From the NCBI GenBank assembly GCA_002011735.1, contig MTOQ01000013.1, positions 1 through 56,553 of the forward strand: a stretch of 56,553 bases of DNA. Reading direction: 5' to 3'. Below, one piece after another: positions 11,047 through 40,981 of the stretch. Origin of the DNA: Nitrospirae bacterium JdFR-81 (GTDB taxonomy: Bacteria; Nitrospirota; Thermodesulfovibrionia; UBA6902). Each line of letters begins with the position of its first letter. The first letter of the stretch is position 1. A program made the position numbers and the translations under genes. The notes beneath the pieces were generated by a model. The model did not search any database, was not told the origin of the DNA, and was given only the letters and a program-made list of their open reading frames with translations.

Positions 11047-11065
11047 CCCTTAAAAAGGAGGACTT

Positions 11066-12289
11066 ATGGGAGAGAGACTAAAGTGTCCGGTCTGTGGAAA
11101 ACCACTGACACGTGCAGAGTATGACAGGGCCCTGGGCCTCTGGAAGGAAAAACAGGAGCATATAAAACACCTTGAGGCAGAGCAGAAGAAACTCAGGGAG
11201 AACCAGAAGAGGCTTGAAGAAGAGAGAAAGAGGCTCAAGGCACAGGAGAAGGCGTATAAACAGCAGGTAAAGAAACTGACCGACGAATTTCAAAGGCAGA
11301 AGACCCAGCTCATAAAAGAGAGGGACAGGCTCTTACAGGAGCAGAGAAAGAAATTTACAGAGGAGATGCATAAGCAGAGGGCCAGGATGGAAAAATCCTT
11401 TGAACTCCGCATGAAGAAAGAGATCCAGAAAGGCATTGCCCGTGGCATAGAAGAGCAGAAGAAACAGATCAAGAAGCAGGAAGAAGAGCTCAGGAAGGCA
11501 AAGAACAGGATGCAACAGCTTGAGAGGAGCCTGCGCATCTCTGCCAGAAAGTATGAGCAGGCCAATGAGGAGATCAAGAGACTGAGGAAACAGCTTGAAC
11601 AGGGCATTACCCCACAGATAGAGGGACTGCTTGAAGAAGACAATCTCCTCTCAAAACTCAAGGAACTATATCCTGAAGACAGGTTTGAGCATCCAGGCAA
11701 GAAAGGTGATATAATTCAGATCGTTATAGATCAGGGCAGGGAGGTTGGCAAAATAGTTTATGAATGTAAGAAGGTGAAGACATTCAACAGCAGACATATC
11801 GATCAGGCCAGAGAGGCACGCAATAAACGACAGGCCGATTTTGCCATTCTTGTAACAAACGCCTTTCCATCGAAGAGACAGTTCTACTTTGTTGAAAAGA
11901 CGGTGTTTGTAATCAGTCCCATAAGCCTTGAGCCCATAACCTATATCCTCAGGGCCAGCCTGGTGAGGATAGCCCTGTTGAAGATGAGCAATGAGGCAAA
12001 GGAGAAGGCAGTCCAGAGGGTCTATGAGTATCTCTCAAGCAGTGAGTATAATAACAAAGTGAATGATATTGCTAACCAGCTTTTTGAACTCGGCAAAGAA
12101 CTCCGTTCTGAGATATCTGCTCACAAACGCACCTGGGAGAAGAGATACAACATATACCGTTGTCTATTTAATGACATAAGATTGATAGACCACAAGCTGA
12201 AGGAACTCGTCCACGACAGCACCAACAACAAACAAAAACTCCTGCCACTGAGAAAGGAATATATCGAGATTACGGAATTGGGAGGGTGA
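11066..12289 (+). CDS. DUF2130-like coiled-coil protein with PD-(D/E)xK domain
   Basis: N-terminal CPVCG, ~160 aa E/K/Q/R coiled coil, QIEG..E..L..LYPED, GDIIQ..V...GKIVYECKK, ADFAILVT. Confidence 0.75.
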   Translation: MGERLKCPVCGKPLTRAEYDRALGLWKEKQEHIKHLEAEQKKLRENQKRLEEERKRLKAQEKAYKQQVKKLTDEFQRQKTQLIKERDRLLQEQRKKFTEEMHKQRARMEKSFELRMKKEIQKGIARGIEEQKKQIKKQEEELRKAKNRMQQLERSLRISARKYEQANEEIKRLRKQLEQGITPQIEGLLEEDNLLSKLKELYPEDRFEHPGKKGDIIQIVIDQGREVGKIVYECKKVKTFNSRHIDQAREARNKRQADFAILVTNAFPSKRQFYFVEKTVFVISPISLEPITYILRASLVRIALLKMSNEAKEKAVQRVYEYLSSSEYNNKVNDIANQLFELGKELRSEISAHKRTWEKRYNIYRCLFNDIRLIDHKLKELVHDSTNNKQKLLPLRKEYIEITELGG

Positions 12290-12329
12290 GGGAAAAAGTA
12301 GATATATAATATTCGCAAAAGGAGGTATT

Positions 12330-13181
12330 ATGGGTAATACAATAGAAAAATTTTTGTCTGCCTTGAATAAAAAGGATGGCAATTTTCGGAAAAGTGCAGG
12401 TAACTATGCTAATAGAGTCCACATACATCATAACCCGAAGAAAGACATTAAAATCCCACAGAAAAAAGATCCAAGCAAAACAAAGAATTGTGACATTGTT
12501 TTTGCTCATTTATATGAAAATCCACGAACTAAAGAATTATTCTGGCTCAAGAAAGCGGCTAATTCACAACATGTTCATGGACATAAGTGTATTTCTTATA
12601 TTTTTCATAATCTATTATCTTCCCCTCCAGTAAAAATCAAACGTGATTTGGCAAAGAAAATATTAGATTCGGAACTTCCTAAGATCGTCGATTACCTAAA
12701 TAAAATAGAAAAGGATAATATAACTTTAGAAGATTTGGATTATAACCATGAAGAAATAGAGCAAGTGTCTACATATCTTATCGAACGTCAAATTAGGAAT
12801 GTTGGAGGAGGATACCGGAACCACGAAGATAATCGTAAGGTAGAAAAAGCAGCTATTAAATTCGTTATAAGACATTACAAACAACAGGGGTGGAATGTCC
12901 AGTCTGTGGAATTTGAGAAAAGAGGATACGATTTACTCTGCACAAAAGGAACAAGAGAGGAGCATGTTGAAGTAAAAGGTATCAAAGGTACAGAGTTATC
13001 ATTTATTGTTACATCTCGTGAAGTTGAACAGGCTCATATAGACCCCCACTCGGTATTCTGCGTGGTGACCTCTGCCTTATCAAAGAGACCAAAATTATCA
13101 CGTTTTACTGGTAAAGAATTTATTAATTCCTTCAAGTTAAATCCGTTAGCATTCAAAGCTATATTTAGTTTGAAAAAATAA
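12330..13181 (+). CDS. DUF3883 (NOV_C-like) PD-(D/E)xK domain protein with unknown N-terminal domain
   Basis: VEKAAI.FV...Y.QQGW.V...GYDLLC...HVEVKG...TSRE; strong SD; AT-rich DNA. Confidence 0.8.
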   Translation: MGNTIEKFLSALNKKDGNFRKSAGNYANRVHIHHNPKKDIKIPQKKDPSKTKNCDIVFAHLYENPRTKELFWLKKAANSQHVHGHKCISYIFHNLLSSPPVKIKRDLAKKILDSELPKIVDYLNKIEKDNITLEDLDYNHEEIEQVSTYLIERQIRNVGGGYRNHEDNRKVEKAAIKFVIRHYKQQGWNVQSVEFEKRGYDLLCTKGTREEHVEVKGIKGTELSFIVTSREVEQAHIDPHSVFCVVTSALSKRPKLSRFTGKEFINSFKLNPLAFKAIFSLKK

Positions 13182-13214
13182 GATACAAATCGACATGAGG
13201 AAGGAGAGGAATAA

Positions 13215-14597
13215 ATGGAAAATTTGAGAAATACGGTGAGGCGATTAACAGAAGAAGAGAAAAAACAAGCCATTGCCGCTGCCAAGAGAGAAAAAGCTAA
13301 GGGGTCGCGTAGTCAAGGAACATCTAACATCCCAGTAGAAGTAGAATATAAGGGGAAAATATATGTTGGAACAGGGAAAGAAGTATTTCGAATACTAAAA
13401 AAAGATAGTGGAGTAAAGTCGTCAACTCTTACGGCTCTTGTAAAAAAGATTGGTGCTAAGTGGCTATTTAATCCATTGGCTGAAGAAGGCGAAATAAGTA
13501 ATATACGTACAGAAACAGAAAAACATCTTAAGGAGACAAAGATACAATCAGATTCAGAAGGTGTTTATAAACTACTTGAAAAGAAAAAACAGATCATTCT
13601 CTATGGGCCACCTGGGACGGGGAAGACATATAGTACAAAGGAGATTGCCCTTGAGCTGTTTACTGAAGAAGAGGAAGAGTACGAAGAATTGCGTGACAAA
13701 GGCAGAATCGAATTCATCACCTTTCATCCCTCCTATAGCTATGAAGAATTCATAGAAGGCATCACTGTCGAGACAGAAAGAGAGGGAGTTGCTACCGAAA
13801 GTGTCAAGTATAAACTCAGACCTGGGATTTTTAAAGAGATGTGCAAGAAAGCCTTAGGATCTCTTATTAATTTACCAGATGAGGAAATTGAGGAGAAGAC
13901 ATGGCGTGAAGTTTTTGATGCCTATATAGAGAAAGAAGTTGTGGATTTTGAAGATGCACCTCCATATGTCCTTATCATAGACGAGATCAACAGGGGTGAT
14001 ATGGCAAAGATATTTGGAGAGCTCATAACCCTGCTTGAGGCTGACAAACGCCTTGGAGAAGATAATGAATTAATTGCCACTCTGCCCACATCTGGCGACA
14101 GATTCGGCGTTCCACCAAATCTCTACATCATCGGCACAATGAACACAGCAGACAGAAGCATCGCCCTCCTGGATGTGGCATTGAGAAGGAGATTTGGTTT
14201 TATCGCCATGGAACCAGACCTTGAGATGTTAAGAAGTCATATAGAGAATACTACGGATATAGAAGAGAACACGAAATCTCTCCTTACTCACTCAATTAAG
14301 GCCATTGAAAAGATAAACCAAAAGATATGCCATGACAGGGCCATAGGCAGGGACAAACAGATAGGCCATTCCTATTTATTGAAAGTTAAAAATACAGAAG
14401 ATCTGGCCATGGTCTGGCGACATGAGATACTGCCCCTCCTTGAAGAGTACTGCTACGGAGACTATCAGAAGATCAACCAGATACTCTTTAATAGTGATTC
14501 AGACACTGAGTGGATAAGTCAATGTGAAGGGATTAAAGATATCACAGCCAATAACATCAGAGACATGCTCAATGAGATAATTTCTGATGGTGAATAA
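13215..14597 (+). CDS. mcrB: McrB-family AAA+ GTPase
   Basis: GPPGTGKT, FHPSYSYEEFIEG, IIDEINRG, signature MNTADRS, ALRRRF, IGHSY. Confidence 0.93.
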   Translation: MENLRNTVRRLTEEEKKQAIAAAKREKAKGSRSQGTSNIPVEVEYKGKIYVGTGKEVFRILKKDSGVKSSTLTALVKKIGAKWLFNPLAEEGEISNIRTETEKHLKETKIQSDSEGVYKLLEKKKQIILYGPPGTGKTYSTKEIALELFTEEEEEYEELRDKGRIEFITFHPSYSYEEFIEGITVETEREGVATESVKYKLRPGIFKEMCKKALGSLINLPDEEIEEKTWREVFDAYIEKEVVDFEDAPPYVLIIDEINRGDMAKIFGELITLLEADKRLGEDNELIATLPTSGDRFGVPPNLYIIGTMNTADRSIALLDVALRRRFGFIAMEPDLEMLRSHIENTTDIEENTKSLLTHSIKAIEKINQKICHDRAIGRDKQIGHSYLLKVKNTEDLAMVWRHEILPLLEEYCYGDYQKINQILFNSDSDTEWISQCEGIKDITANNIRDMLNEIISDGE

Positions 14598-15873
14598 TAG
14601 CAGTATCATAGAAGTCCCAGAATACAAATCAATAAAGATAGAACCTCTAAGTGATAGAGAGATTGAGTATCTCAGGCAGGACTGCTTTAACTACAGGGAG
14701 GAAGGAAAGTCACCTTATAAAGTAAGGCGTTTGAAAGAGAAAGACGAGATTGAAAACACCTCCTACTCTGGTATCATCCAGCTTGATAACTTCAGGATTC
14801 ATTTCTCCACAAAGGTCAGCACAAACCTGTTCTACATGCTCACCTTTCTTAAAGACGAAAAAGCGTTCCTCTATGATTCAGAAAGGATTATTGAGATAAA
14901 AGAAGGCGAATGCTTCTTCGACATCATTGGCAGGCTCTTTCTGAACGAACTGGAAAAGATCTTTGAGAGAGGCTTCTATAAGAGATATGTCAGAAAAGAA
15001 GAAAATCTTGCCTTCCTTAAAGGCAAGCTATTGATTAAACATCAGATAAGAAACGATTTCACCAGAAGGCCAGAGTTTTACTGCTCATATGAAGACCTGA
15101 CATACGACAACCTCGAGAATCGCATAATCCTGCGTGCCGCAACCCTCCTGATTCCACTTATCCGTTTTAATGAAGAGATAAAGGGTGACCTCCTTAAATA
15201 TACCCATCTCCTCAGAGAAGAAGTCAGCCTCATTGATGTGAATCCCGAAGACTGCAATCGGATAAGGTTTCACAGGCTCAATGACTACTATGAAGCCATA
15301 ATCCAGCTCTCAAAGGTTATTCTTCAGTATCACTTCATCAGGCATACACAGAAGGGACTCTCCAAGGGGTTCAATTTTATTGTAAACATGAACAGAGTAT
15401 ACGAGGACTTTATCACCTCTGTTATCGAAGACATCGTCTCAACTGATGAGGAATTTCAGGACTTCGTGGTGGAGAAACAGGCAAGATTTGACAGTCTTGT
15501 AAGAGAGAGAACGATTATCACAAGACCCGACATAATCCTCCGCAGGAAGAACACCGAAGAGTATCCTGTTATTATTGACGCCAAGTACAAGAGGGAGGAG
15601 GACAACACAGACTATTATCAGGTGATAGCCTATGCTATGGCAATACCTACAGCAAAGGTATGTTGCTTAATTTATCCAGCAGAAGAAGAAAGGATTGAGA
15701 CAAGGATTTTAACTCTTAAAAGAAAGGCCTTTGACAGCGCAAGAGAAGATGTAAGATTACATGCAATCAAGATCAATTTATTCTGGGAAGAAAAGACGGG
15801 ATTTAAAGATTATATAACGAAGGTAAAGAGAGAATTAAAAGGCGAATTATTAAATGTAGTAGAATTCCATTAA
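14587..15873 (+). CDS. mcrB-partner mcrC: McrC-family endonuclease subunit
   Basis: MNRVYEDFI, RPDIIL, IIDAKYK, DYYQVIAYA, LIYP; overlaps the mcrB stop. Confidence 0.9.
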   Translation: MVNNSSIIEVPEYKSIKIEPLSDREIEYLRQDCFNYREEGKSPYKVRRLKEKDEIENTSYSGIIQLDNFRIHFSTKVSTNLFYMLTFLKDEKAFLYDSERIIEIKEGECFFDIIGRLFLNELEKIFERGFYKRYVRKEENLAFLKGKLLIKHQIRNDFTRRPEFYCSYEDLTYDNLENRIILRAATLLIPLIRFNEEIKGDLLKYTHLLREEVSLIDVNPEDCNRIRFHRLNDYYEAIIQLSKVILQYHFIRHTQKGLSKGFNFIVNMNRVYEDFITSVIEDIVSTDEEFQDFVVEKQARFDSLVRERTIITRPDIILRRKNTEEYPVIIDAKYKREEDNTDYYQVIAYAMAIPTAKVCCLIYPAEEERIETRILTLKRKAFDSAREDVRLHAIKINLFWEEKTGFKDYITKVKRELKGELLNVVEFH

Positions 15874-15897
15874 GCTCAAGGCCCATCGAAGAGGACG

Positions 15898-17496
15898 ATG
15901 GTAAGATTAACCTTTTATGGAGGCATAAGAGAAATAGGAGGGAATCAGATCCTTCTTGAGGATGGAGACAGGTCTGTATTTTTTGACTTTGGACTATCAT
16001 TCAAGAGATACAAAAAATTTTATGAAGAATACCTTAAACCTCGCGCTGGTTCAGGCTTGCTTGATCCTTTAATTATGGGATTACTCCCTCCGCTAAAAGG
16101 GATCTACAGAGATGACCTGCAAAATTCCGAGATCTGGAAGCACTTCCATGCCAGCCCTTTTGTCTGAAAATTAAAAAAGTTAGACGGAGTTCTTTTAAGT
16201 CACGCCCACCTTGACCACTCAGGTTATATCTCTTTCCTTAAAAAAGAGATTCCCATCTGTTCAAGCTCAATGACTGCTTTTATTGTGAAGGCAGTTCAAG
16301 ACAGTGGAAGACCTGATTTTGATAGACGTATCTGCTATTTTACTCCATGCGAGACCGGTATACCTGCAGGGTGGAGACAAGAGGCATTTCTGTCAGACTC
16401 ATCCAGTCCTGATGAACAACGCCTTTTTCTCCTGGGAGATATCTCGCCGCGCAAACTGCCCAAGAAAGCGGTAGAATTTTGGGCAAACCCAGCAAAAACA
16501 AAAGAGCTTATCTCGTGTTCCCCTGGAAATTGTAAAGAATTTGTTTTTAACTTAAAATGTTTTGCTGTTGATCATTCGATACCAGGGGCAACAGCATGGG
16601 CAGTGGAAACCAACGCTGGATGGATAATTTACACTGGTGACCTTCGTCTACATGGGAAGAAGAAGGAATTCACACAGAAGTTTCTGAAGAATGCCGCAAG
16701 ACTTAAGCCCAAGGTGCTCATAATAGAAGGCACCAGGGTAGATGATGAAAGAAAGATTAACGAAGAAGAGGTTAAGGGTAATCTCCTTAAAGTTGTAAAG
16801 AGGTTCAAGGGGAAACTGGTTATAGCTGACTTTGGCGCAAGAAATATAGAGCGGTTAGAAACATTTCTCGAAATCGCAGAGGAAGTCGGGAGAAAGCTTG
16901 TTATAACGGATAAAGATGCCTACCTGCTCGATGCGCTCCATGTATTGGATCCAGCTATTCCTGATGCAACCAATAAGCATATATATGTCTATCAGAAGAC
17001 AACCGCAAATAAAAGTCCTGATATATGGAAGAGAAACATTTATGCTAAGTATAGCAATAAGATCGTGATGGCAGAAGATATTCGCAGAAATCAAGAAGAT
17101 TTTATTTTGTGCTTCAGTTTTTTCGATATAAACGAATTGCCAAGTCTTAAACCCGAGCCAGAGAGTGCATATATTTATTCTTCAAGTGAACTTTACGATG
17201 AAGAGCAGGAAATAGATTTCCGGCGACTTCATGCCTGGCTTGAACATTTCCAGATTAAAGGAATAGGATTGCCAAGGGAAATAGCTTACCGGAAATGGGA
17301 GATTCCAGAGGATGAAAAAGCACTTCATGCCTCAGGACATGCCGCCGGCCCTGAGTTAATAGAGATGGTCTGCTTGATTAAACCACAATATGTCCTCCCG
17401 GTACACACCGAAAGACCTGAATATTTCAGGGAACACCTCCGCGATACAGATATCAAGGTAAGAATAGCTGAACCAGGTGAGTGTATAAATATCTAA
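15898..17496 (+). pseudogene. MBL-fold beta-CASP RNase J-like nuclease interrupted by one in-frame TGA (16165-16167)
   Basis: ORFs 15898-16167 and 16270-17496 share a frame. Reading through the TGA gives KLKKLDGVLLSHAHLDHSG. Other motifs: GGIREIGGN, DFG, VDHSIPG, YTGDLRLHG, IIEGT, HASGH, PVHTE. Confidence 0.8.
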
Positions 17497-18211: not shown

Positions 18212-18718
18212 ATGATGGAGAGGGTGATAACGATATTGACATTACTGATCACATTTATTGCGGTTTCAGGTGTTGTTTATGCAGGCTCAGTGAATGGCAC
18301 ACTTGATGTTACAGCGAATGTCATCGGATTTTGTGATGTGATGGTCACTGGCGTGGACTTTGGGAATGTAGTGGCGGATGGCTCCCTCTATTATGCCAAT
18401 GGGGATGTATCTGTGGCATGTGACACAGGGGTACCTTATAACATTGCTATGGATGCAGGTATGTATTTTGATGGGATCAGCAGGCAGCTGAGCGACGGTT
18501 TTAGTGGTTTCCTGCATTACCACCTCTTTAAGGATGGGACTTACACTCAGGAGTATGGTGATTCCGACTATGATAATACCTTCCCATTGGGATCCAGTCT
18601 TTCAGATATAGGTGATGGGACATGGCAGGCACACACGGTCTATGGCCAACTGGTAACTCTGGGCGGAGAGCCCGTGGGTAGTTACGCTGATACCGTTACG
18701 GTAACCGTCTACTATTAA
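18212..18718 (+). CDS. Csu-type (spore coat protein U domain) pilin
   Basis: Signal peptide, V.A.V..C..V.FG, second Cys, L.Y.LFKD, VYG, GSYADTVTVTVYY C-terminus; strong SD. Confidence 0.9.
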   Translation: MMERVITILTLLITFIAVSGVVYAGSVNGTLDVTANVIGFCDVMVTGVDFGNVVADGSLYYANGDVSVACDTGVPYNIAMDAGMYFDGISRQLSDGFSGFLHYHLFKDGTYTQEYGDSDYDNTFPLGSSLSDIGDGTWQAHTVYGQLVTLGGEPVGSYADTVTVTVYY

Positions 18719-18732
18719 AAAATAAAAATTAG

Positions 18733-18759
18733 ATGGGGCTTCCACATTGGAAGCCCCAT
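18733..18759. other. GC-rich intergenic hairpin after the pilin gene
   Basis: ATGGGGCTTCCA-cat-TGGAAGCCCCAT, perfect 12-bp stem, no U-tract on the + strand. Confidence 0.7.
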
Positions 18760-18764
18760 GATGA

Positions 18765-19562
18765 ATGGAGTGGGGGATGAGACAACCTCACTTTTTTATC
18801 CTTCTTATTTTTCTTCTATCCCTTCCTGTAAATGTAGATGGAAGTTCACTCAAGATATCCCCCCTGAAAGTATCGCTCGGTGAAGGCAGACGATCCGCTG
18901 TATTGAGCCTTACGAATACAGGAGAGGAGGCGATAACCCTCCAGGTTTCTGCCAAGAGGTGGCTTCAGGACGAGACGGGCAAGGATATATACAGCGATAC
19001 TGAGGATATTATATTCTTCCCCAGGATATTCCAGATAGAGAAGGGTAAAACGAGAATCATAAGGGTGGGTTACCAAGGGGCAGTAGATGTGCAGGTGGAG
19101 AAGGCATACAGACTGTTTATTGAAGAATTGCCTGTAACAGCTCCCCGGGGGGAGATACTGAGGTTTGTCTTGAGATTCGCTGTGCCTGTTTTTATAACAC
19201 CTTCCAGAGAGGTCAGGAGACCGATTATTGAGAAGGTAGGCCTTGCTCATGGTAGTGTTAGAGTGAAGATAGGGAATGCGGGTAACACACACCTGCTCAT
19301 GAGAAAGCTCGTTATAACCGGCGTTGGGGCATCTGGGAGGGAGGTCTTTTCAAGGGAGACGGCAGGATGGTATATCCTTGAAGGCTCATCAAGGGCTTTT
19401 ATTGTGAATATCACGGAACAGGAGTGTCTGGAGGCAGATGTAATCAAGATAAAGGCCACGGGTGAGCACCTGAATCTTGAGGCCAAGCTGGACCTTAAGC
19501 CAGAGTACTGCAAAGCGTCTGAGAGGAAGGGACGGGCTCATACAGGAAGAAAGGCAGGATGA
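18765..19562 (+). CDS. Fimbrial chaperone (PapD/CsuC-like)
   Basis: ISPLKV, L.NTG, IIFFP.IF, IIRVG, EKAYRLFIEELP, RFAVPVF, NAGNTH. Confidence 0.88.
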   Translation: MEWGMRQPHFFILLIFLLSLPVNVDGSSLKISPLKVSLGEGRRSAVLSLTNTGEEAITLQVSAKRWLQDETGKDIYSDTEDIIFFPRIFQIEKGKTRIIRVGYQGAVDVQVEKAYRLFIEELPVTAPRGEILRFVLRFAVPVFITPSREVRRPIIEKVGLAHGSVRVKIGNAGNTHLLMRKLVITGVGASGREVFSRETAGWYILEGSSRAFIVNITEQECLEADVIKIKATGEHLNLEAKLDLKPEYCKASERKGRAHTGRKAG

Positions 19563-21904
19563 CCGTAGAAGGCCGTTCTTGGAAACCACACCTTATAAGT
19601 CTTGCCTTATTAAATCTGCTCCTTCTTTCCTCATCATTGTATGCAACCAATAGAGTAGTAATGAAGGTCTATCTGAACACCGTAGAGATGGGAGAATATA
19701 TCTTCATCCTCGGGCCTGAGGATACCGTGTTTTTCCCTATGAGGGATCTGCTTGATATGGGTTTCGACAGGCCACCCGAAGATGCGGAAGTAGAGATAGA
19801 AGGAGAGAGGTATATTTTATTAAACAAGATCCAGGGCGTAGGGGTTGAGATAGATAAGGAGAGGGTGATACTCCATATCACCGCTGAACCTCATCTCCTC
19901 AAAAAGCATTTGTTCGATCTCTCATTCAAGGGACCGAAGGATGTCTTATATGTAAGAAATGATTCCGCGTTTCTAAATTATTACCTTGATTATCTAACGG
20001 GTGATGTAGATTTTGGATCGTTGTCCCTTTCTCTTGAGACCGGGGTGAATATAGGGGGTTATTTCGGTCATTCCAATTTTTCTTATCTGAATTCGAATAG
20101 TGAGGATAGATTTGTAAGATTGATGACGAGCATAACAAAGGATGACCCTGTGACACTCCGAAGGTACGTACTTGGTGACTCCTTTGCTACCTCAGGGCTG
20201 TATCTCAGTGGAGGATTAATCCTTGGGGGAGTGGGTATCTCGAAGAACTATAAGATAAATCCTTATTTTATAAAGGTGCCAAGTCTCACCCTCTCGGGTG
20301 CTGTCCAGACACCATCAGACATTGAAATCTATGTGGATGATTACCTCATAAGAAGAGAGAGAGTGCCTCCAGGAGAGTTTGAGTTCTTAAACCTTATAGA
20401 GAGGCCGGGTGCGGGCATATCCACCATATTGATAAAGGATGCATATGGACGTGTGAAAAAGGTGGATACCCCGTTTTATATCTCTTCCTCCCTCCTCAGG
20501 CCAGGCGTCCAGGAGTACAGTTACACCCTGGGATTCAAGAGGGAGGATTTTGGCAAAGAGAGTTTCAGATACACCGAACCCTTGTTGATAGGTTTTCATC
20601 GACTTGGGCTTACTGATACCCTAACGGTAGGAGCCGGGATAGAAGGTGGCAGGGAAGGATTTAATCTTTCACCCTCGATCACCTTTCTCCTCGGACTGGC
20701 AGGAGAGATGCATATCTCTGGTGCAATAAGTAACCATAATGGTCAAATTGGCTATGGAGCATTATTGGGTTATAGTTATACCAGCAGAAAGAAGAGTCTG
20801 AGGATTTCCGTCCGTGGCTTCAGCAGAGGATACTCAAATGTCTCTCTCCTTCCTTCGCAGGACAAGCCCTGGTTTGAGGGTAATATAAACTCTGGATATA
20901 ACCTTGGAAGGCTTGGAACCATCTCGGTAGGGTTTTCAATGGGAGATTATTATGCCTCTACAGAGGTAAAAAGATTCTCGATAAACTATACAAAGAGACT
21001 CAGAAAAGACCTCTCCTTTCATCTCAGGTTCACCAGGACAGAAACAGATGAGGTGGTTAATAAGGTCTTTATAGGGCTGAGAATCTCTCTGGGAGGGCAT
21101 CATTCAGGGGAGGCAAAATACACATCGGACGGGGAAGTCTCAGAGCAGACCCTGTTGATCTACAAGGATCCACCGTTCAAGAAAGGCATAGGATACAGGC
21201 TGAATATTGAAAGGGTAGCCTCTGAGACAGAAAATGGAGAGGTGAATGGTGATGTTCTCATACACTACCGTTTTCCTGCGGCCATCAGCAGAATTAATTA
21301 CAGGCATATCTCCGGAGAGGATGTCTATAATCTTGGCGTAACAGGAGGGATAGTGTTTATAAAGGACTCCCTGTTTTTAACGCGCCCTATTACAGACAGT
21401 TTTGTACTTGTCAGGGTGGATGGACTCGAAGGGGTAAGGGTATATTATAGCAACAAGGAGGTAGGTCGGACGAACAGAAAAGGGGATCTCATTGTGCCAT
21501 ACATCCTCTCATACCATCCCAATAACATCTCCATTGAGCCTGAAGATATACCTGTGCAATATGAATTAAAAGCAGTGAAGAAGTATGTTACAACCCCCTA
21601 TAGGGGTGGTGGTATCATGGAATTTGAGACAAGAGCGCTTCAAGGTTTTATAGGCCACCTCTTTATGCTTCAGAAAGGCAGAAAGGAGCCTGCTGAATAT
21701 GGAAGACTCGAGATTAAGGCAGAAGACAGCGTTATCAAAACAGTGACAGGTAAGGGTGGAGAGTTTTATCTTGAGAACCTCCCACCAGGGAAATTCCCTG
21801 CGAGGCTCTTCCTTAAGGATATGGAATGTGATTTTGAGTTAACCATACCACACAGCAACAAGGTGATTGTGAATATTGGAGAGGTGATATGTCATATGAA
21901 TTAG
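19559..21904 (+). CDS. Fimbrial outer-membrane usher (CsuD-like)
   Basis: RFVRLMTS, LGDSF, PSDIEIYVD, DAYGR, LLRPG, SFVLV, G.T..KG.L.VP, C-terminal Cys pair. Confidence 0.9.
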   Translation: MTVEGRSWKPHLISLALLNLLLLSSSLYATNRVVMKVYLNTVEMGEYIFILGPEDTVFFPMRDLLDMGFDRPPEDAEVEIEGERYILLNKIQGVGVEIDKERVILHITAEPHLLKKHLFDLSFKGPKDVLYVRNDSAFLNYYLDYLTGDVDFGSLSLSLETGVNIGGYFGHSNFSYLNSNSEDRFVRLMTSITKDDPVTLRRYVLGDSFATSGLYLSGGLILGGVGISKNYKINPYFIKVPSLTLSGAVQTPSDIEIYVDDYLIRRERVPPGEFEFLNLIERPGAGISTILIKDAYGRVKKVDTPFYISSSLLRPGVQEYSYTLGFKREDFGKESFRYTEPLLIGFHRLGLTDTLTVGAGIEGGREGFNLSPSITFLLGLAGEMHISGAISNHNGQIGYGALLGYSYTSRKKSLRISVRGFSRGYSNVSLLPSQDKPWFEGNINSGYNLGRLGTISVGFSMGDYYASTEVKRFSINYTKRLRKDLSFHLRFTRTETDEVVNKVFIGLRISLGGHHSGEAKYTSDGEVSEQTLLIYKDPPFKKGIGYRLNIERVASETENGEVNGDVLIHYRFPAAISRINYRHISGEDVYNLGVTGGIVFIKDSLFLTRPITDSFVLVRVDGLEGVRVYYSNKEVGRTNRKGDLIVPYILSYHPNNISIEPEDIPVQYELKAVKKYVTTPYRGGGIMEFETRALQGFIGHLFMLQKGRKEPAEYGRLEIKAEDSVIKTVTGKGGEFYLENLPPGKFPARLFLKDMECDFELTIPHSNKVIVNIGEVICHMN

Positions 21905-29875: not shown

Positions 29876-30560
29876 GGTGCGTATAGCAGTAATAATACCG
29901 GCCCTTAATGAAGAGAAGACCCTCCCCCGTGTCCTGGGTGACATCCCGCGTGATCTTGTTGATGAGGTGGTGGTTGTTGACAATGGCAGCACCGACAGGA
30001 CGCCCGAGATAGCGAGGCAGTGGGGGGCCACGGTGCTCTTTGAGTCAAGGAGGGGATATGGCTATCCCTGCCTGAGGGCCATAGAGTATCTCAAGGGGAG
30101 GGAACCTGATATAGTGGTGTTCCTTGATGGTAACTACAGCGATCACCCTGATGAGATGGAGGTGCTTATAAGGCCGATTATGGAGGAGGGCTATGACCTC
30201 GTCCTTGGCTCAAGGGTGATGGGAGAGGCAGAGGAGGGGGCACTCAGGTTGCCTGTCCGTTTTGGCAACGGGCTTGCGACCTTCCTTATAAGGATACTCT
30301 ACGGATTCAGATACACAGACCTTGGCCCATTCAGGGCGATAAGGTTCAAGAGGTTGCTTGAGCTGGATATGGGAGACAACCTTGGCTGGACAGTGGAGAT
30401 GCAGGTCAAGGCCGTTAAGAGGGGATTCAGGATAAAGGAGGTCCCTGTGAGCTATCGCAGGGGCACGGGGCGGTCAAAGTTTACAGGAGATATCAGGGGT
30501 ATATTCCGTATCGGATACAGGATACTGAGGGCGGTCTTCAGAAACCTAACCTTCCATTAA
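29868..30560 (+). CDS. GT2, polyprenol-phosphate glycosyltransferase (DPM-synthase-like)
   Basis: IIPALNEE, VVDNGSTD, GYG, DLVLGSR, TDLGPFRAI, GWTVEMQ, EVPVSYR. Confidence 0.85.
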   Translation: MYKVRIAVIIPALNEEKTLPRVLGDIPRDLVDEVVVVDNGSTDRTPEIARQWGATVLFESRRGYGYPCLRAIEYLKGREPDIVVFLDGNYSDHPDEMEVLIRPIMEEGYDLVLGSRVMGEAEEGALRLPVRFGNGLATFLIRILYGFRYTDLGPFRAIRFKRLLELDMGDNLGWTVEMQVKAVKRGFRIKEVPVSYRRGTGRSKFTGDIRGIFRIGYRILRAVFRNLTFH

Positions 30561-31127
30561 CAGCTCTATCAATCTCTTCATCTCATCAGTATCCCATTCC
30601 CTGTAACCAACGCTCAGGCCGATCAGTCTACCTTCTCTGTCGATGAGGAACTTTGTCGGTGTTGACCTTACCCTGTAGAGCATGCTCACCCTTGCATCGC
30701 TGTCAAGGAGGTTGGGGTATGTGATCCCGTGCCTCTTGAGGAGGGCCGAGACCCTGTCCCTCTCCTCCTCTATATCTATGCCGATGATGACAAATGCTCT
30801 GCCCTCAAAGTGCTGATAGAGCCTCTCAAGGGAAGGCAACTCCTTCCTGCACCATGGTCACCATGTGGCCCAGAAGCTCAGCAGGATCACATTACCCCTG
30901 TACTCCCTCAGGTTCACCATGCGTCCATCGATGGACAGGAGTTCAAACTCAGGGGCAGGTGTGGCCTCATCAATGGGCACGATATTCATTGAGTTCATTA
31001 ACTCTGACAGGGGTCCTCCTGCTGTGTCCCTGGCCTTTCCTGGGCCCTGTTTCTCCTCACACCCATGGAGTGATGCAAAGATGATGAGGATGATGGTTAT
31101 GTGGAGGAATCTATTGATTATCCGCAT
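30546..31127 (-). CDS. TlpA/ResA-like thioredoxin lipoprotein, predicted selenoprotein (Sec at codon 90, UxxC)
   Basis: Track ORFs 30858-31214 and 30546-30839 are one frame: APEFEL..G.V.L.EYRG.VILLSFWATW-TGA-PWCRKELPSLE...YRVRSTPTKFLIDREG. Lipobox LHGC after ATG 31127. Confidence 0.85.
30831..30847 (-). promoter_or_regulatory. Candidate bacterial SECIS hairpin
   Basis: GGAAGG-AGUUG-CCUUCC starts 11 nt after the UGA; the loop begins 16 nt from the UGA with G in second position. Confidence 0.55.
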
Positions 31128-31140
31128 ATTATAAAGGCTC

Positions 31141-32346
31141 TTAAGTGCCGACAGGCTGGCCCTCTGTCGAGGCGGCTGCCTTTGCCTTCTGGCGGGCTGC
31201 CTTCTTTGCCTCAAAGGCCATCTTGACCTCAGGATAGTTGATCGTCCCCTCTATGGCAAGCACAGGACATTTTGATGTGCAGATGCCACATCCAATGCAC
31301 CTCTCCTGGTCTATTACATGCCTCTTCTTCCTCTCGCCTGATGCCGCATTCACAGGGCAGACCTTGGTGCATGTGGTGCAGCCGATACATTTCTCTGTGA
31401 CATGGGCCTTTGGCCTTTGTGGTATGTAGTCCATTATCGCATTTGTGGGGCACTTCCTGACACACAGACCGCATACCTTGCACTTATCAAGGTTTATCCT
31501 GGAGAGGTTATCAGCCATCTCAGCCGCATTGTATGGACAGACCTTCACGCACATACCGCAGCCGATACAACCTATAAGGCAGTTCTTCTTTGTCACCGCA
31601 CCCTTGTCCTTTGAATGGCACCTCACAAGCACCTCTTTTGCAAGGGGCAGTATCTCTATGACATTCTTTGGGCACGCCTTTGCACAATTCCCGCAGGCGG
31701 TGCACTTTGAGGGGTCAACAACAGGGATGCCATCATCACCCATCTTTATCGCATCAAACGGGCATGCCTTTACACATGTCCCGTAACCAAGACACCCGTA
31801 TACACAGGACTTGTCCCCTCCACTGGCAAGCACCGCTGCCCTGCAGTCGAGGATACCCTCATACTTGAACCTCCTTGTGGCCTTTGACGAGCCACCCTGA
31901 CACATCACCCTGGCGATCTTTGGCTCTGTCTCAGCGACCTCCTTACCTGTTATGATGGCTATTGCCTTTGCAGTCGGCTCCCTTCCAGGGGCGCATAGGT
32001 TTGGTGGCACATTCGGATCAGCGACAACCGCCTCTGCATACTGCCTGCAACCAGGATAGCCGCATGCCCCGCAGTGTGCATGGGCGAGTACATCCAGCAC
32101 CTGTTCAACCCTCGGGTCTGTCTTTACATCGAACTTCTTTGCGGCAAAGGCAAGGCCAAGGCCAAAGAGCGCACTTATGCCTGCCATGAAGATGGCGGCA
32201 AACTTGAGGACAGCCACAAGGTCAACACTCTCCTTTGCCTCCACACCACCACCAACGCCTGCATAAATGGTGGGGCTCCAGCATAGCAGTAGCACGATGG
32301 TGATAGCGAATATCATTACCCCTCTATGGCCCTTCATCTCCAACAC
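31141..32346 (-). CDS. rnfB: RnfB, long polyferredoxin form
   Basis: DPRVEQV..L...CGACGYPGC, C.YGCLGYGTC...CPF and five further CxxCxxCxxxCP motifs. Confidence 0.9.
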   Translation of the reverse strand: MLEMKGHRGVMIFAITIVLLLCWSPTIYAGVGGGVEAKESVDLVAVLKFAAIFMAGISALFGLGLAFAAKKFDVKTDPRVEQVLDVLAHAHCGACGYPGCRQYAEAVVADPNVPPNLCAPGREPTAKAIAIITGKEVAETEPKIARVMCQGGSSKATRRFKYEGILDCRAAVLASGGDKSCVYGCLGYGTCVKACPFDAIKMGDDGIPVVDPSKCTACGNCAKACPKNVIEILPLAKEVLVRCHSKDKGAVTKKNCLIGCIGCGMCVKVCPYNAAEMADNLSRINLDKCKVCGLCVRKCPTNAIMDYIPQRPKAHVTEKCIGCTTCTKVCPVNAASGERKKRHVIDQERCIGCGICTSKCPVLAIEGTINYPEVKMAFEAKKAARQKAKAAASTEGQPVGT

Positions 32347-32352
32347 CCTTCC

Positions 32353-32940
32353 CTAAAGCCTTATCAGGCCCGAAAACCCCGTGAATGCAAGGGATATAAG
32401 CCCTGCTGTTATGAATGCTATCGGCAGTCCCCTGAAGGGGACAGGGACATCGGCAAGCTCGAGTTTTTCACGGATGCTCGCCATGATGACAAGTGCAAGG
32501 GCGAAGCCGAGCCCTGAGCCAAGGCCAAAGGATATGCTCTCCAGGAAGTTATAGCCCTCACCGGCATTTATCAGCGGGACCGCAAGGATGATACAGTTTG
32601 TCGTTATGAGTGCGAGGTACACACCAAGTTTATAATACAGTGTGGGACTCACCTTCTTCATTATCGTATCTGCAGACTGAACAAAGGCAGCCACTATACC
32701 TATGAATATGATTATCTTCAGGAATGTTATATCAAGCGGGACCATCACCTGTGTGAACACGACCCAGCTCAGTGCAGCACTGACGACCATGACAGATGTA
32801 AAGGTGATGCTCATCCCCACCGCGGTCTCCATCTTCTTTGAGACACCGAAGAAGATGCAGAGGCCAAGGAACCTTGTGAAGACAAAGTTATTTATGAGTG
32901 ATGCGGCTATCAGCAGTTCAAAGAGCTTTCCAAATTCCAT
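32353..32940 (-). CDS. rnfA: RnfA
   Basis: NNFVFTRFLGLC.FFGVS, LITTNC, IREKL, AFTGF. Confidence 0.93.
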   Translation of the reverse strand: MEFGKLFELLIAASLINNFVFTRFLGLCIFFGVSKKMETAVGMSITFTSVMVVSAALSWVVFTQVMVPLDITFLKIIIFIGIVAAFVQSADTIMKKVSPTLYYKLGVYLALITTNCIILAVPLINAGEGYNFLESISFGLGSGLGFALALVIMASIREKLELADVPVPFRGLPIAFITAGLISLAFTGFSGLIRL

Positions 32941-32951
32941 GGTTCATCCTC

Positions 32952-33584
32952 CTATGCAGCGCCTGAGGCACCCTTGCCTCCATAGAACCTTATATCGATC
33001 CAGTTAAAGAAGCCCATGAGCAGGCCAACGGCAAGGAAGCCTCCTGCAGGTAGTATCATAATAAGCAATGGCTTGCCGGCCACTATCTTGAGTCCATAGA
33101 GCGTGCCCTTGCCAAGCAGTTCCCTGAAGAAGCTGATGATTATCATCGCAAGGAGGAACCCTATGCCCATACCGAGGCCGTCAAAGAATGACTTATCAAG
33201 ACGGTTCTTGCTTGCAAAGACCTCGGCCCTTGCGAATATGGATGCAAAGGCCACGATGATCTGGATGTATAGCCCTATCTCCCTGTATGCCTCCCTCGCA
33301 TACGCAGCCATGACCATATCGATGATGCTCACATACCCTGCGATGATGAACATGAATATAGGGATACGGATCTTCGGATGGATGAACTTCCTGAGGGCGG
33401 ATACAGTGACGTTAACCATCACCTGGACGAAGACCACTGCCAGACCGAGTGTGATACCGTTCTTCAGGCTGTTTGTAACGGCGATTGATGGACACAGGCT
33501 TATCGCCATCCTGAATATGGTGTTCTCACCAAATATGCCGTTCTTGAATATCTCCCAGTTACCCTTTTCCCTTATCAGACTCAT
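32952..33584 (-). CDS. rnfE: RnfE
   Basis: GIFGEN, LCP..AVT, IRIP, DGLGMG.GF, RELLG.GT, LPAGGF. Confidence 0.9.
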   Translation of the reverse strand: MSLIREKGNWEIFKNGIFGENTIFRMAISLCPSIAVTNSLKNGITLGLAVVFVQVMVNVTVSALRKFIHPKIRIPIFMFIIAGYVSIIDMVMAAYAREAYREIGLYIQIIVAFASIFARAEVFASKNRLDKSFFDGLGMGIGFLLAMIIISFFRELLGKGTLYGLKIVAGKPLLIMILPAGGFLAVGLLMGFFNWIDIRFYGGKGASGAA

Positions 33585-33633
33585 TTAAAACCTCGTAAAT
33601 TTAATTTTAAGATTATCTTAGCAAAATATCAAA

Positions 33634-34287
33634 TTAGCCATGCCCCTCTGACACACTCTCGGGCTTACCACCCTTTATCATTATGACGGCGTTCCTGACC
33701 GCATCCTCGGTAACCGCACGGCTTGAGATGGTGGCACCAGTGATCGCCTGTATATCCTCCTTTGTCTCACCCTTCACCACGACAAGGTGCTCAACCGTCT
33801 TGCCATTGAACTGGTTCAGGAAGTAGTCCCTCTCTATCTCATCCCCCAGCCCTGGTGTCTCGGCATGGTGGAGGATGTTCACCTTCCTGACCACATAGTT
33901 GTTGTCCACTGCCACGAGGACATTTATATAGCTTGAATAGCCCTTCCCATAGCTCTCCACTATATACCCGATCGGTGTCCCATCGATACACTCCTTGACC
34001 TCCCTCTCCACCCCTGTCTTTTCATCCTTGACCATCCGGATGTTGAGCTTGCCACACTTCTTTGCCACATAGTATTCTGCGTGTTTCTCATGGGGCTCCC
34101 AGTCACCAAGCTTCTCTATTATATCGGCCTCAGGCGACATGGTCTTCAGTGCTGCCTGCTTCTCCTCCTGGGCCTTCCTGTACATTACAGGTGAGGCCTT
34201 TGAATAGACGAATGCTATGAGGAGCCCGCCAAGCACATATACGATCACGAGATTGAGGGTTATCTTTAACATATCAATGGGCCTCAT
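33634..34287 (-). CDS. rnfG: RnfG (FMN-binding)
   Basis: N-terminal TM, KGYS, HAETPGLG, ITGATISS flavinylation motif. Confidence 0.9.
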   Translation of the reverse strand: MRPIDMLKITLNLVIVYVLGGLLIAFVYSKASPVMYRKAQEEKQAALKTMSPEADIIEKLGDWEPHEKHAEYYVAKKCGKLNIRMVKDEKTGVEREVKECIDGTPIGYIVESYGKGYSSYINVLVAVDNNYVVRKVNILHHAETPGLGDEIERDYFLNQFNGKTVEHLVVVKGETKEDIQAITGATISSRAVTEDAVRNAVIMIKGGKPESVSEGHG

Positions 34288-35294
34288 CTCTTCTTCTCCT
34301 TTACGGCACCAAAGAGTTCAGGCTTTACATTCCTGTCGATCAATGGGGCAAAACAGTTCATCAGGAGTATTGCGAACATGACACCCTCAGGGAAACCGCC
34401 CTTGAGACGGATGAGCATAGTGATGGCACCACAGCCTATACCAAAGATTATCTGCCCCTTCCTTATGGTTGGGCATGTCACATAGTCTGTAGCCATAAAG
34501 AATGCACCCAGTATGAGACCACCGCTCAGGAGGTGTATAAGCGGGTCTCCTGTGAAGAGCCCCTCTTTGCCGCCAAAGACCCAAGCGAGTATGGCGACTG
34601 TTGAGAGGAATGATATGGGTATATGCCAGGTGATGTACCTCTTATAGAGCAGATATGCGGCACCGATGAGCAGGAGGATCACCGATGTCTCACCAAGGGA
34701 GCCTGCCCTGTTCCCAAAGAGCAGGTTTATATAGAGGTCCCCTTTACTGCCGAACTCCTCGATCAGCTTGTTAATCCCTTCTTCCTTTAGTATACCGAGC
34801 GGGGTTGCTGTGGTCTTTGCATCAAGGGCAGTAAACTGGGCTGTTGGTGCACTCCATGTGGTCATCGCCCTTGGCCATGTTATGAGCAGGAACGCCCTGC
34901 CGATAAGGGCAGGGTTAAAGATGTTATAACCGAGGCCACCAAAGAGCTGTTTTGTTATCACAACTGCCACAACAGAACCCACAATAGGGATATAAAACGG
35001 CACAGATGGCGGCAGGTTCATCCCCAGCAGCAGCCCTGTAAGGAATGCACTCCCGTCACTTATGGTGATCTGCCTCTTCAGGGCCTTCTGGAAGAGATAC
35101 TCAGACAGGACAGAGCTTATTATACACAGTGCTGTGACAAAGACGGCCCTCGGTCCAAAGTAATAGAATGAGGCGATCAGGGCAGGCATGAGGGAGAGGT
35201 TCACACTCCACATGATGCGGCCCACCGTCTCCCTGTCCCTCACATGAGGGCTCACGGAGACTATGAGTGGATGTCTCTTCTGTTCAACAGCCAT
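34284..35294 (-). CDS. rnfD: RnfD
   Basis: SPH, DGSAFLTG, KQLFGGLG.NIFNPA, TATPL, GSLGETS, GAFFMATD, PEGV.FA. Confidence 0.94.
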   Translation of the reverse strand: MAVEQKRHPLIVSVSPHVRDRETVGRIMWSVNLSLMPALIASFYYFGPRAVFVTALCIISSVLSEYLFQKALKRQITISDGSAFLTGLLLGMNLPPSVPFYIPIVGSVVAVVITKQLFGGLGYNIFNPALIGRAFLLITWPRAMTTWSAPTAQFTALDAKTTATPLGILKEEGINKLIEEFGSKGDLYINLLFGNRAGSLGETSVILLLIGAAYLLYKRYITWHIPISFLSTVAILAWVFGGKEGLFTGDPLIHLLSGGLILGAFFMATDYVTCPTIRKGQIIFGIGCGAITMLIRLKGGFPEGVMFAILLMNCFAPLIDRNVKPELFGAVKEKKR

Positions 35295-35306
35295 CTCTTC
35301 TACTTT

Positions 35307-36620
35307 TTACGGCTTTGTCTGTGACTTTGCCAGCCTTATAAACTGCACAATCGGCCTCTTTGACGGGCATATGAAGGCACACGACCCACACTCAAAGCAA
35401 TCAAAGAGGTTATATTCCTTTGCCTCTTCATAATGCCCCTTCTCAGAGAGGATGCTCAGCATGGATGGGTTGAGACCCATCGGACAGACATCTATGCACC
35501 TGCCACACCTTATGCAGGCAAAATACTCCTCTGACGGGAAGAACTCCTCCTCTGTCTGGACAAGCACCCCTGATGTGCCCTTGACAACAGGCACATCAAG
35601 GCTCCACTGTGCAAAACCCATCATCGGCCCACCGACTATCACCTTGACCGCCCCGTCCACGAGCCCCCCACAGTCCTCGATCAGCTCTGAGAGCATCATC
35701 CCAATCCTCACCTTCAGGTTCTTTGGCTCCCTTACACCCCTTCCGGTTACCGTTACCACCCTCTCTATAAGGGGTTTTCTGTATCTGACGGCCTCATAAA
35801 TGGCAACCGCTGTGCCGACATTCTGCACCACAACACCCACATCCATTGGTAGCCCACCCTTTGGAGGCACCTCCCTGCCTGTTATCGCCTTTATGAGCAT
35901 CTTCTCGGCACCCTGTGGGTACTTCACCTTTAGCTGTCTGACGTCTATGTCTCCCTCACCGACCGTGGCATCCTTCATCACCTTGATGGCATCAGGCTTA
36001 TTCATCTCTATGCCTATAAACCCCCTTGGTACACCAAGTGCCCTCATTATGATCTTCAGGCCATTGACCACATCCTCTGGCCGTTCAACCATCAGTCTGT
36101 GGTCAGCAGTAAGGTAGGGTTCACACTCTGCACCATTGAGGATGACCGTGTCGATCGGCTTCTCCTTTGGAGGAGAAAGCTTTACGCTTGTGGGGAAGGC
36201 TGCACCACCAAGGCCCACTATCCCTGCATCCCTGATGAGGGCCTTTATCTCATCAGGGGGGAGGTTCAGATAATCAGGGTTGTCCTCAAGGGGGAGTGGT
36301 TCGTCCTTACCATCACTCTCTATGACAATTGAGGGGACCATCCTTCCAGATGGATGGAGGAAATCGGATATGGCTATGACCTTCCCTGAGATGGATGCAT
36401 GCACAGGTGCAGAGACAAAGCCAGGGGGAGAGCCTATCATCTGGTATCTCTTAACCTCTTCGCCTATATTCACCTCGGGCTTTGCAGGTGCACCTATGTG
36501 CTGGCTCAATGGGATCACCACACGCCTTGGAAGGTGGGCACTCTCGATAGGCTTATGGGCGGTGAGCTCCTTTGATTCATGTGGATGCACACCACGCTCG
36601 AATGTATCGGCCTTAACCAT
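35307..36620 (-). CDS. rnfC: RnfC
   Basis: QHIGAP, AGIVGLGGAAFP, NGAECEPYLTAD, KYPQGAEK, GGPMMG, two 4Fe-4S motifs. Confidence 0.95.
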   Translation of the reverse strand: MVKADTFERGVHPHESKELTAHKPIESAHLPRRVVIPLSQHIGAPAKPEVNIGEEVKRYQMIGSPPGFVSAPVHASISGKVIAISDFLHPSGRMVPSIVIESDGKDEPLPLEDNPDYLNLPPDEIKALIRDAGIVGLGGAAFPTSVKLSPPKEKPIDTVILNGAECEPYLTADHRLMVERPEDVVNGLKIIMRALGVPRGFIGIEMNKPDAIKVMKDATVGEGDIDVRQLKVKYPQGAEKMLIKAITGREVPPKGGLPMDVGVVVQNVGTAVAIYEAVRYRKPLIERVVTVTGRGVREPKNLKVRIGMMLSELIEDCGGLVDGAVKVIVGGPMMGFAQWSLDVPVVKGTSGVLVQTEEEFFPSEEYFACIRCGRCIDVCPMGLNPSMLSILSEKGHYEEAKEYNLFDCFECGSCAFICPSKRPIVQFIRLAKSQTKP

Positions 36621-40465: not shown

Positions 40466-40981
40466 ATGAGATACCGGGGGATCATCCTGATCGTCTTGCT
40501 CGCCCTGGCATTGATAGCCATCGTGTTCCTTCCGAGTGAGAGGTCATACATGACCGTGGCAGCTGTGGGAAAGCCAGCACCTGACTTTGAACTCAGGGAC
40601 TCTACAGGCAGGCTCTGGAGGCTCTCTGACCTCAGGGGCAAGGTGGTCTTTATAAACTTCTGGGCCACATGGTGCACAACCTGTAAGGCAGAGATGCCAT
40701 ATAAGGAGAGGCTCTACAAGAAGATGCAGGGCAGACCATTCCAGATGCTCGGGATACTCTTCAGGGATAACCCTCATAATCTTGTCCAGTATTTCAAGGA
40801 ACACAAAGTCAGTCCACCAACGCTTATAAGCCCTGACAACAAGGTTGCAAGGCTCTACGGGATAACCGGCGTCCCTGAGACCTTTATCGTGGATAAGAAC
40901 GGGATTATAAGGGAGAAGATAGTCGGTCCAAGGGAGTGGGACAGCCCTGAAAGCATCGCATTGATCGAGAAGTGGCTTTAG
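40466..40981 (+). CDS. TlpA/ResA-like thiol-disulfide oxidoreductase (Cys form)
   Basis: APDFEL, NFWATWCTTCKAEMP, GVPETFIVD. Confidence 0.9.
   Translation: MRYRGIILIVLLALALIAIVFLPSERSYMTVAAVGKPAPDFELRDSTGRLWRLSDLRGKVVFINFWATWCTTCKAEMPYKERLYKKMQGRPFQMLGILFRDNPHNLVQYFKEHKVSPPTLISPDNKVARLYGITGVPETFIVDKNGIIREKIVGPREWDSPESIALIEKWL

Follow-up and report, generated by a model that had tools for sequence, protein, structure and literature searches.

A gene interrupted by an in-frame TGA in a Nitrospirota contig very probably encodes an exported thioredoxin-fold selenoprotein

Contig MTOQ01000013.1 of Nitrospirae bacterium JdFR-81 (assembly GCA_002011735.1), all 56,553 nucleotides of which were analyzed and are called the window below, carries on its minus strand a locus that gene callers record as two small proteins. 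We conclude that it is very probably a single gene for a selenocysteine (Sec)-containing, exported and probably lipid-anchored thiol-disulfide oxidoreductase with a thioredoxin fold, a member of the AhpC-TSA/Redoxin (TlpA/ResA-like) superfamily. A first-pass annotation, made from the DNA letters, had proposed a hidden selenoprotein at this place, and comparison with relatives bears it out: the interrupting TGA is conserved in an orthologue, 12 other relatives are broken at the same point, all 60 more distant homologues in the tree have a cysteine there, and TGA is otherwise a normal stop codon in this DNA. The parts of the gene are as follows.

31127 (ATG) to 30546 (TAG at 30548-30546), minus strand: whole gene, a 193-codon frame with one in-frame TGA
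30860-30858, minus strand: the TGA, predicted codon of Sec90, the N-terminal nucleophile and first residue of the redox motif U-P-W-C, which covers 30860-30849
30579..30968, minus strand: thioredoxin-fold domain, residues 54-183 (alignment with 3kcm), with the cis-Pro position P157 and GYREWD downstream of the TGA
30847-30831, minus strand: candidate minimal hairpin of a Sec insertion sequence (SECIS), with a 6-bp stem GGAAGG/CCUUCC and a loop AGUUG, 10 nt 3' of the UGA
31059..31127, minus strand: N-terminal signal sequence, read by eye, ending in a lipobox-like L-H-G-C (Cys23)

The TGA at 30860-30858 is the sole internal stop of the frame 31127-30546 and falls, as the first-pass annotation had pointed out, exactly on the first cysteine of a WCxxC motif (WATW-U-PWC). 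When it is read as Sec (U), the protein continues as ...RGNVILLSFWATW-U-PWCRKELPSLE..., and 103 codons remain before the TAG. The start at the ATG 31127 is backed by N-terminal similarity to two orthologue pieces (P0133 and P0134). Open reading frame (ORF) calling breaks the gene into a piece of 89/118 aa and a piece of 97 aa starting at an internal TTG (30839), and the predicted mishandling by standard gene callers is indeed what is found in the protein collection, where separate proteins of 89-99 aa stand for the halves of this gene (entries P0123 and P0122) and for those of its relatives.

Family and structure searches show that the two halves belong together. Using as query the read-through protein (P0001), in which C was substituted for U, we obtained Pfam matches that run across the TGA to AhpC-TSA (PF00578; 89.8 bits vs a cut-off of 26, E 1.6e-25, residues 57-168) and to Redoxin (PF08534; 74.5 bits vs a cut-off of 26.6, E 9.8e-21, residues 56-182). 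The best match in the PDB is the thioredoxin-family structure 3kcm (E 4.8e-30, residues 54-183), followed among others by Bacillus subtilis ResA (~1e-25) and TlpA (1.5e-16), so that the continuation of a thioredoxin fold beyond the stop, which had been read from the translation, is upheld by matches spanning it. In both 3kcm and ResA, the first Cys of W-C-P-x-C pairs with U90. In an alignment of 42 sequences (the window protein and 41 relatives), the residues F61, F85, W86, A87, T88, W89, C90, C93, E96, P98, P157, G166, G174 and W178 are invariant, position 90 being Cys in all 40 Cys rows, and these invariant residues lie both upstream and downstream of the TGA. We infer that the residue inserted at position 90 is Sec.

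The same interruption is found in relatives. A locus from a Nitrospirota metagenome-assembled genome (MAG), designated L001, has a gene at 360-968 in which the sequence FWATW-TGA-TWCKKELPSLE is found and the two halves are in frame. Its product shares about 48-49% identity with the window protein over 193 aligned codons, 105 codons follow its TGA compared with 103 in the window, and the P/T-W-C-R/K-K-E codons immediately after the stop are conserved between the two. A search among short proteins gave 14 matches from 16 candidates, corresponding to the two window pieces, nine C-terminal pieces (95-97 aa, 55-80% identity) and three N-terminal pieces (38-57% identity), each of the last three terminating at ...LLSFWATW. 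The contigs recorded for the N-terminal piece P0133 and the C-terminal piece P0137 both measure 2261 nt and are probably identical, and the orthologue piece P0130 comes from a Thermodesulfovibrionia MAG. The names under which the pieces were deposited are "cytochrome c-type biogenesis protein," "SCO1/SenC family" and "hypothetical protein."

Uninterrupted homologues are more distant and carry cysteine. Among 120 near-length matches listed, no full-length relative exceeds 50% identity, and none exceeds 46% in the best 150 of 144,646 matches from a search of 1.84 billion representatives, those best 150 being mostly multi-domain proteins. From genome contigs, 80 loci were fetched, 54 of which lie outside the motif pattern and hence outside the codon count; all 26 instances of the Cys motif that could be counted use TGT or TGC. 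Together with the TGA found at the same codon in L001, this is the TGA/TGC alternation that a homologue alignment had been expected to reveal. Since the pattern of the contig scan was a Cys-containing back-translation, blind to TGA forms, L001 is the one TGA orthologue recovered as DNA. In a maximum-likelihood tree built from 97 columns downstream of the motif, with the Sec column left out, the 11 TGA or split rows make up one side of a branch with support 100/99, and the left-out column is Cys in all 60 remaining rows. Judged from these sequences, neither a nonsense pseudogene nor a sequencing error can explain why so divergent a clade retains a stop at its catalytic position, with both halves intact and evidently constrained as protein.

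A hairpin with a G in its loop had also been noted downstream, at a distance suitable for a SECIS. It is present, as a 17-nt element (GGAAGG-AGUUG-CCUUCC, -8.6 kcal/mol), and its counterpart in L001 (AGAAGG-AGUUG-CCUUCU) differs by one compensatory change from G-C to A-U that keeps the basal pair. The region is unusually conserved at the nucleotide level. While third codon positions are identical to those of L001 at a frequency of 0.34 gene-wide, they are identical at 10/10 positions in the 10-codon window that begins with the codon preceding the UGA, the highest value for any such window, and nucleotide identity peaks at 0.93 in the same place. In the ten codons upstream of that window, amino-acid identity is higher (0.9) and third-position identity just 0.5, an asymmetry suggesting that the RNA 3' of the UGA is under constraint. 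Hairpin energy did not separate Sec from Cys forms, and we therefore adopted a positional definition of the stem (at least 6 contiguous bp, a loop of 4-7 nt with a G, and a start 8-13 nt after the codon), according to which the element is present in 2/2 TGA forms vs 1/27 Cys forms (p ~0.007, Fisher's exact test, by hand). Such a hairpin after a TGA is uncommon, but not rare by chance, because comparable stems follow 149 of the 2527 TGA trinucleotides on both strands of the window, 43 of them with GU in the loop and seven, like the candidate, with GU and Watson-Crick pairs only. The isolated 27-nt hairpin is somewhat more stable than shuffled sequence (z-score of -1.6, with 16/200 shuffles folding equally well). 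The SECIS of E. coli fdhF, as outlined in the available part of PMC8659212, combines a bulged U with a 17-nt upper stem-loop that carries G and U in its apical loop and lies at a distance of 11 nt from the UGA. The candidate resembles it in its 17-nt size, its distance of 10 nt rather than 11 nt and the G followed by U in the apical loop, and is unlike it in having a 5-nt loop and no convincing lower stem. Taken together, the hairpin is compatible with a SECIS function, for which the sequence comparison offers modest support. A separate peak of nucleotide identity with L001 (0.90, with 7/10 third positions) lies over GYREWDTDEMK (~30570-30610, minus strand), a stretch that is conserved throughout the Sec clade.

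The genetic code of the window was examined through its stop codons and in-frame TGAs. The stops of 52 ORFs comprise 22 TGA, 19 TAA and 11 TAG, so that TGA is the commonest, and it ends well-delimited genes such as ispD. Forty frames in the window are bridged by a TGA with at least 50 open codons on each side; homology supports the gene in only two of these cases, the Sec gene and a site at 16165-16167, and the other 38 have no family match of their own. The second gene is the following.

15898-17496, TGA at 16165-16167, plus strand: interrupted gene for a beta-CASP/metallo-beta-lactamase nuclease-like protein, recognized by alignment with PDB 2az4

In this gene, 97 N-terminal residues (TFYGGIREIGGN...) precede the TGA, the HxHxDH motif comes just after it, and the alignment with 2az4 (E 1.3e-21) spans it. 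The stop stands at a non-Cys, poorly conserved position, and this gene is probably a nonsense pseudogene, not a selenoprotein gene.

A number of observations weigh against the interpretation of the locus as a selenoprotein gene. The gene interrupted at 16165-16167, probably by a plain nonsense mutation, shows that interrupted genes are present in the window. The 12 pieces from relatives were read as proteins, for which a stop at that codon is certain and the identity of the stop is not, so that evidence for TGA at the DNA level comes from two sequences, the window and L001. No selA, selB or selD was found among the 59 window ORFs by an NCBIfam scan, and ARAGORN detected no tRNA or tmRNA gene in the window, hence no tRNA-Sec there. 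Several points concern the hairpin. The energy of folding of the whole region is no better than that of shuffles (z +0.83 for 64 nt and +0.63 for 45 nt) and was discarded as an uninformative test for a SECIS, and the energy of the hairpin was rejected as a means of telling Sec from Cys forms, as 6/27 Cys forms are as stable (-7.3 kcal/mol or lower over the same 32 nt). The core of the stem is partly dictated by the coding of the conserved K-E-[L/M]-P-S peptide, and a 6-bp stem with this offset is also seen in one Cys form (L006). In its 5' arm, the candidate lacks the bulged U that the fdhF element has. An Rfam scan of the whole window at gathering thresholds gave no match, and a permissive scan of 30500-31200 gave four, all with E of at least 0.34 and unrelated (e.g., CPEB3 ribozyme and snoRNAs). 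Finally, gene context was abandoned as a clue to function, the gene upstream being rnfB in the window and a gene for a PccH-type cytochrome in L001. As regards Cys homologues in general, three from Deferribacteres MAGs (L006, at ~5199-5240 on the plus strand, with UGAAGG-AAAUG-CCUUCG, as well as L005 and L003) have a stem of 4-6 bp at the same offset after TGT or TGC, and the coding sequence of K-E-M-P-S predisposes this position to a hairpin.

These points have to be set against what the rival explanations would require. If the gene were a pseudogene, or the TGA an assembly or sequencing error, a former CxxC gene would have suffered a nonsense change from TGC or TGT to TGA, which takes one base change and has an apparent parallel in the window in the gene interrupted at 16165-16167. 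This is very improbable, because an unexpressed 3' half would not remain in frame and conserved over such divergence, yet L001, with ~48% protein identity, shares the TGA, which is followed by 103 intact codons in the window and by 105 in L001; 12 further relatives are interrupted at this very position, keep their halves intact and fall in one well-supported clade; and residues invariant in the family stand on both sides of the stop. A truly split gene, which would yield an N-terminal lipoprotein of 89 residues and a C-terminal piece of 97 residues with its own initiation at the TTG 30839, whether or not the two assemble, is even harder to credit. A start codon (TTG or ATG) is called at the same Leu/Met position in 8/9 C-terminal pieces and in the window, but in P0132 the start lies three residues further on, so this internal start is not conserved, and the Leu codon taken as a "start" simply belongs to the loop of the hairpin. 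Splitting would also forfeit the U/C-x-x-C center, although the intervening P/T-W-C-R/K-K-E codons are conserved with L001, and it would leave a C-terminal piece that has no signal peptide in a fold that needs both halves on one side of the membrane.

The remaining alternatives retain a full-length protein and alter the meaning of the codon. Reassignment of TGA to an amino acid (e.g., Trp or Gly) in the genetic code of the organism would account for the open frame by itself, but TGA is the commonest stop in the 52 ORFs, and only two in-frame TGAs occur inside homology-supported genes; we regard this possibility as negligible. Recoding of the UGA to Cys (or read-through with Trp), for instance through a selC*-type tRNA, i.e., a tRNA(Sec)-like tRNA(Cys), would yield an ordinary CxxC protein or one with facultative Sec/Cys, and is the least improbable of the rivals, though still unlikely. 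Genes for selC* tRNA(Cys) have been described in Thermodesulfovibrio and in probable Nitrospirae contigs, in the same lineage as the window, and in E. coli a selC* tRNA with a UCA anticodon can read an opal codon as Cys (Mukai et al. 2016, PMC5389517, in its available part); moreover, at position 90 Sec and Cys look alike from sequence. However, the same source ties the opal anticodon (UCA) to cysS*-bearing Desulfobacterales and not to Thermodesulfovibrio, and it records full sets of selA, selB, selC and selD for the genomes with selC* that were examined, Thermodesulfovibrio included. An overlap of selC and selB in Nitrospirae is mentioned by two reviews (PMC13188914 and PMC9312934, parts available). 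UvrA relatives that carry a name (70-81% identity) come from MAGs of Thermodesulfovibrionia, Nitrospirae or Nitrospirota, save for one entry called simply "bacterium," and support for Sec machinery in the host is thus indirect, at the level of the lineage. No selC*-type tRNA is present in the window, and upkeep of a costly UGA and a hairpin throughout a clade would be an unparsimonious way of specifying Cys, for which TGT or TGC suffices. Insertion of Sec is thus the reading that we favor.

The N terminus of the predicted selenoprotein (MRIINRFLHITIILIIFASLHGC...) appears by eye to be a signal sequence that ends in a lipobox-like L-H-G-C. The lipobox consensus is [LVI][ASTVI][GAS]C. In four of five N termini of the clade (the window protein, P0133, P0134 and P0135), a Cys directly follows the hydrophobic stretch, within ...FASLHGC in the window, where the His at -2 is atypical, FSGC in P0133, LSSC in P0134 and TYAC in P0135; the N terminus of L001 is a hydrophobic anchor without Cys. 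These features suggest that the gene product is exported and lipidated. A plausible course of events can be outlined. The UGA at 30860-30858 would be recoded to Sec by SelB with Sec-tRNA(Sec), with the 17-nt hairpin, which starts 10 nt further downstream, serving to recruit SelB, and the product would cross the cytoplasmic membrane and probably be lipidated at Cys23. The U90-P-W-C93 center would act as a reductant, its selenolate attacking a disulfide in the substrate and C93 resolving the mixed Se-S bond, after which the selenenylsulfide would be re-reduced by a membrane electron shuttle of the CcdA/DsbD type. Dependence on SelB and the direction of electron flow are what we infer here. The family scans found no gene for a CcdA/DsbD-type shuttle among the window proteins. 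Given the neighbors, rnfB in the window and PccH in L001, a periplasmic cytochrome or a protein linked to Rnf may be the substrate.

Two features elsewhere in the window are related to the Sec gene, by position and by descent respectively.

31141..36620, minus strand: rnfCDGEAB operon (NCBIfam RnfC, D, G, E, A and B), upstream of the Sec gene
40466..40981, plus strand: Cys-form paralogue, FWATWCTTC (TGC), 39% identity over 134 residues

The rnfB stop lies 13 nt ahead of the ATG of the Sec gene on the same strand, and no terminator-like site was found between them on the minus strand, which makes co-transcription with the rnf operon plausible. RnfB itself (31141-32346, minus strand; NCBIfam NF005503, 304.8 vs 252 bits) is a Cys form that has no interruption and carries a long polyferredoxin extension; NF005503 is listed as including UxxC selenoprotein forms in the available part of PMC13188914. 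In L001, the gene immediately upstream (3-338, plus strand) is not rnfB and encodes a PccH-type c cytochrome (E 8.7e-41), so the most that context offers is a faint indication of some connection with periplasmic electron-transfer proteins. The paralogue, singled out by the first-pass annotation as an internal Cys/Sec control, does carry a Cys codon, TGC. Elsewhere, the plus strand has a defense-island-like run at 10123-17496, consisting of a WYL/WCX-domain regulator, a Rad50-like ATPase, a NOV_C-domain protein, McrB, McrC and the interrupted beta-CASP nuclease, as well as a cluster of the chaperone-usher type at 18212-21904 (SCPU-domain subunit, PapD-like chaperone and outer-membrane usher). 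On the minus strand at 51499-52736, an AbiEii nucleotidyltransferase toxin stands beside an HTH (HipB/Xre-like) protein in what looks like a type IV toxin-antitoxin pair.

What this locus reveals is, in the first place, an annotation gap. Databases list the gene and its relatives as pairs of small, seemingly unconnected proteins, hypothetical or wrongly named, that no NCBIfam rule reaches at its cut-off, and a periplasmic redox enzyme is as a result absent from metabolic reconstructions. Because the gene is split and outside the NCBIfam rules, the selenoproteomes of Thermodesulfovibrionia are likely to be under-counted. To a sulfate-reducing, anaerobic lineage the gene adds a UxxC reductase that is predicted to be exported and is probably lipid-anchored, and the Sec/Cys pair of paralogues in one genome (30546-31127 vs 40466-40981) raises the question of how selenium benefits an extracytoplasmic thiol-disulfide reductase. 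Existing knowledge of Sec decoding is unchanged by the finding. As to origin, we tentatively entertain the idea that the split forms are a clade specific to Nitrospirota/Thermodesulfovibrionia that underwent its own conversion from Cys to Sec, with a SECIS that was not acquired but grew out of a hairpin to which the coding sequence was already inclined. The latter part comes from the fact that K-E-[L/M]-P-S encodes AAGG...CCUU and that the Cys forms L006 and L005 have a stem of 4-6 bp there. If true, the locus would be a worked example of a redox Cys codon becoming a Sec codon. A bolder and less likely conjecture is facultative Sec/Cys decoding of the UGA, in a lineage known for selC* tRNA(Cys).

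Three groups of known proteins invite comparison. ResA-like WAxxUGC selenoproteins of the TlpA family, a cd02966 entry in the available part of PMC13188914, share with the window protein the TlpA-like superfamily and a Sec in a redox motif preceded by W-A-x-x. Unlike it, they have a U-G-C motif and are long (the profile has 354 positions); membership in their family (NF041054) was rejected, the score being 54 bits vs a cut-off of 300 and the motif U-P-W-C instead of U-G-C. The Cys proteins ResA, TlpA and CcmG (DsbE; PDB 1st9, 1jfu, 2b1k and others) have the same fold, the same placement of W-C-x-x-C and, as predicted for the window protein, anchoring at, or export to, the outer face of the membrane. 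They differ in that all are Cys proteins and in that no ccdA, resBC or ccm genes adjoin the Sec gene. The NCBIfam scores are below the cut-offs for TlpA (NF047696, 79.4 vs 230), ResA (NF002854, 102.5 vs 170) and DsbE/CcmG (TIGR00385, 58.2 vs 123), and the likeness to these three is therefore at the level of the superfamily only, where the term "TlpA-like" of the first-pass annotation is apt; as a statement about the TlpA family proper, it does not hold. By analogy, the mode of action is probably theirs, i.e., reduction of a disulfide in a substrate and recharging by CcdA/DsbD.

The closest counterpart is the selenoprotein type called Prx-like thiol:disulfide oxidoreductase (PF00578, with UxxC or UxxU), which has figured in lists from the earliest surveys of prokaryotic selenoproteomes onward, is listed in PMC1794560, PMC9312934 and PMC13188914 and, according to the available parts of these sources, was first predicted in Geobacter, Syntrophus and Desulfotalea. 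Tables 1 and 3 of PMC1794560, available in part, give eight members and three independent Cys-to-Sec conversions. We found no description of the Sec clade in the available parts of the literature on Thermodesulfovibrio/Nitrospirae selenoproteins, of BSepDB or of deep-Sep, and survey supplements might list it. The window protein shares with the Prx-like type PF00578 as best Pfam match, Sec as the first residue of UxxC, abundant Cys homologues, an anaerobic host lineage and a TGA conserved in at least two sequences (the window and L001). It is set apart by its lipobox-type N terminus, by the lack of any NCBIfam model that reaches its cut-off and by its place in a Nitrospirota/Thermodesulfovibrionia clade that may represent a separate Cys-to-Sec conversion. 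Compared by features and description rather than with the reference WP_010940744.1, the predicted protein fits the UxxC type of this family, and the clade to which it belongs is a new lineage-specific branch of an already known type of selenoprotein.

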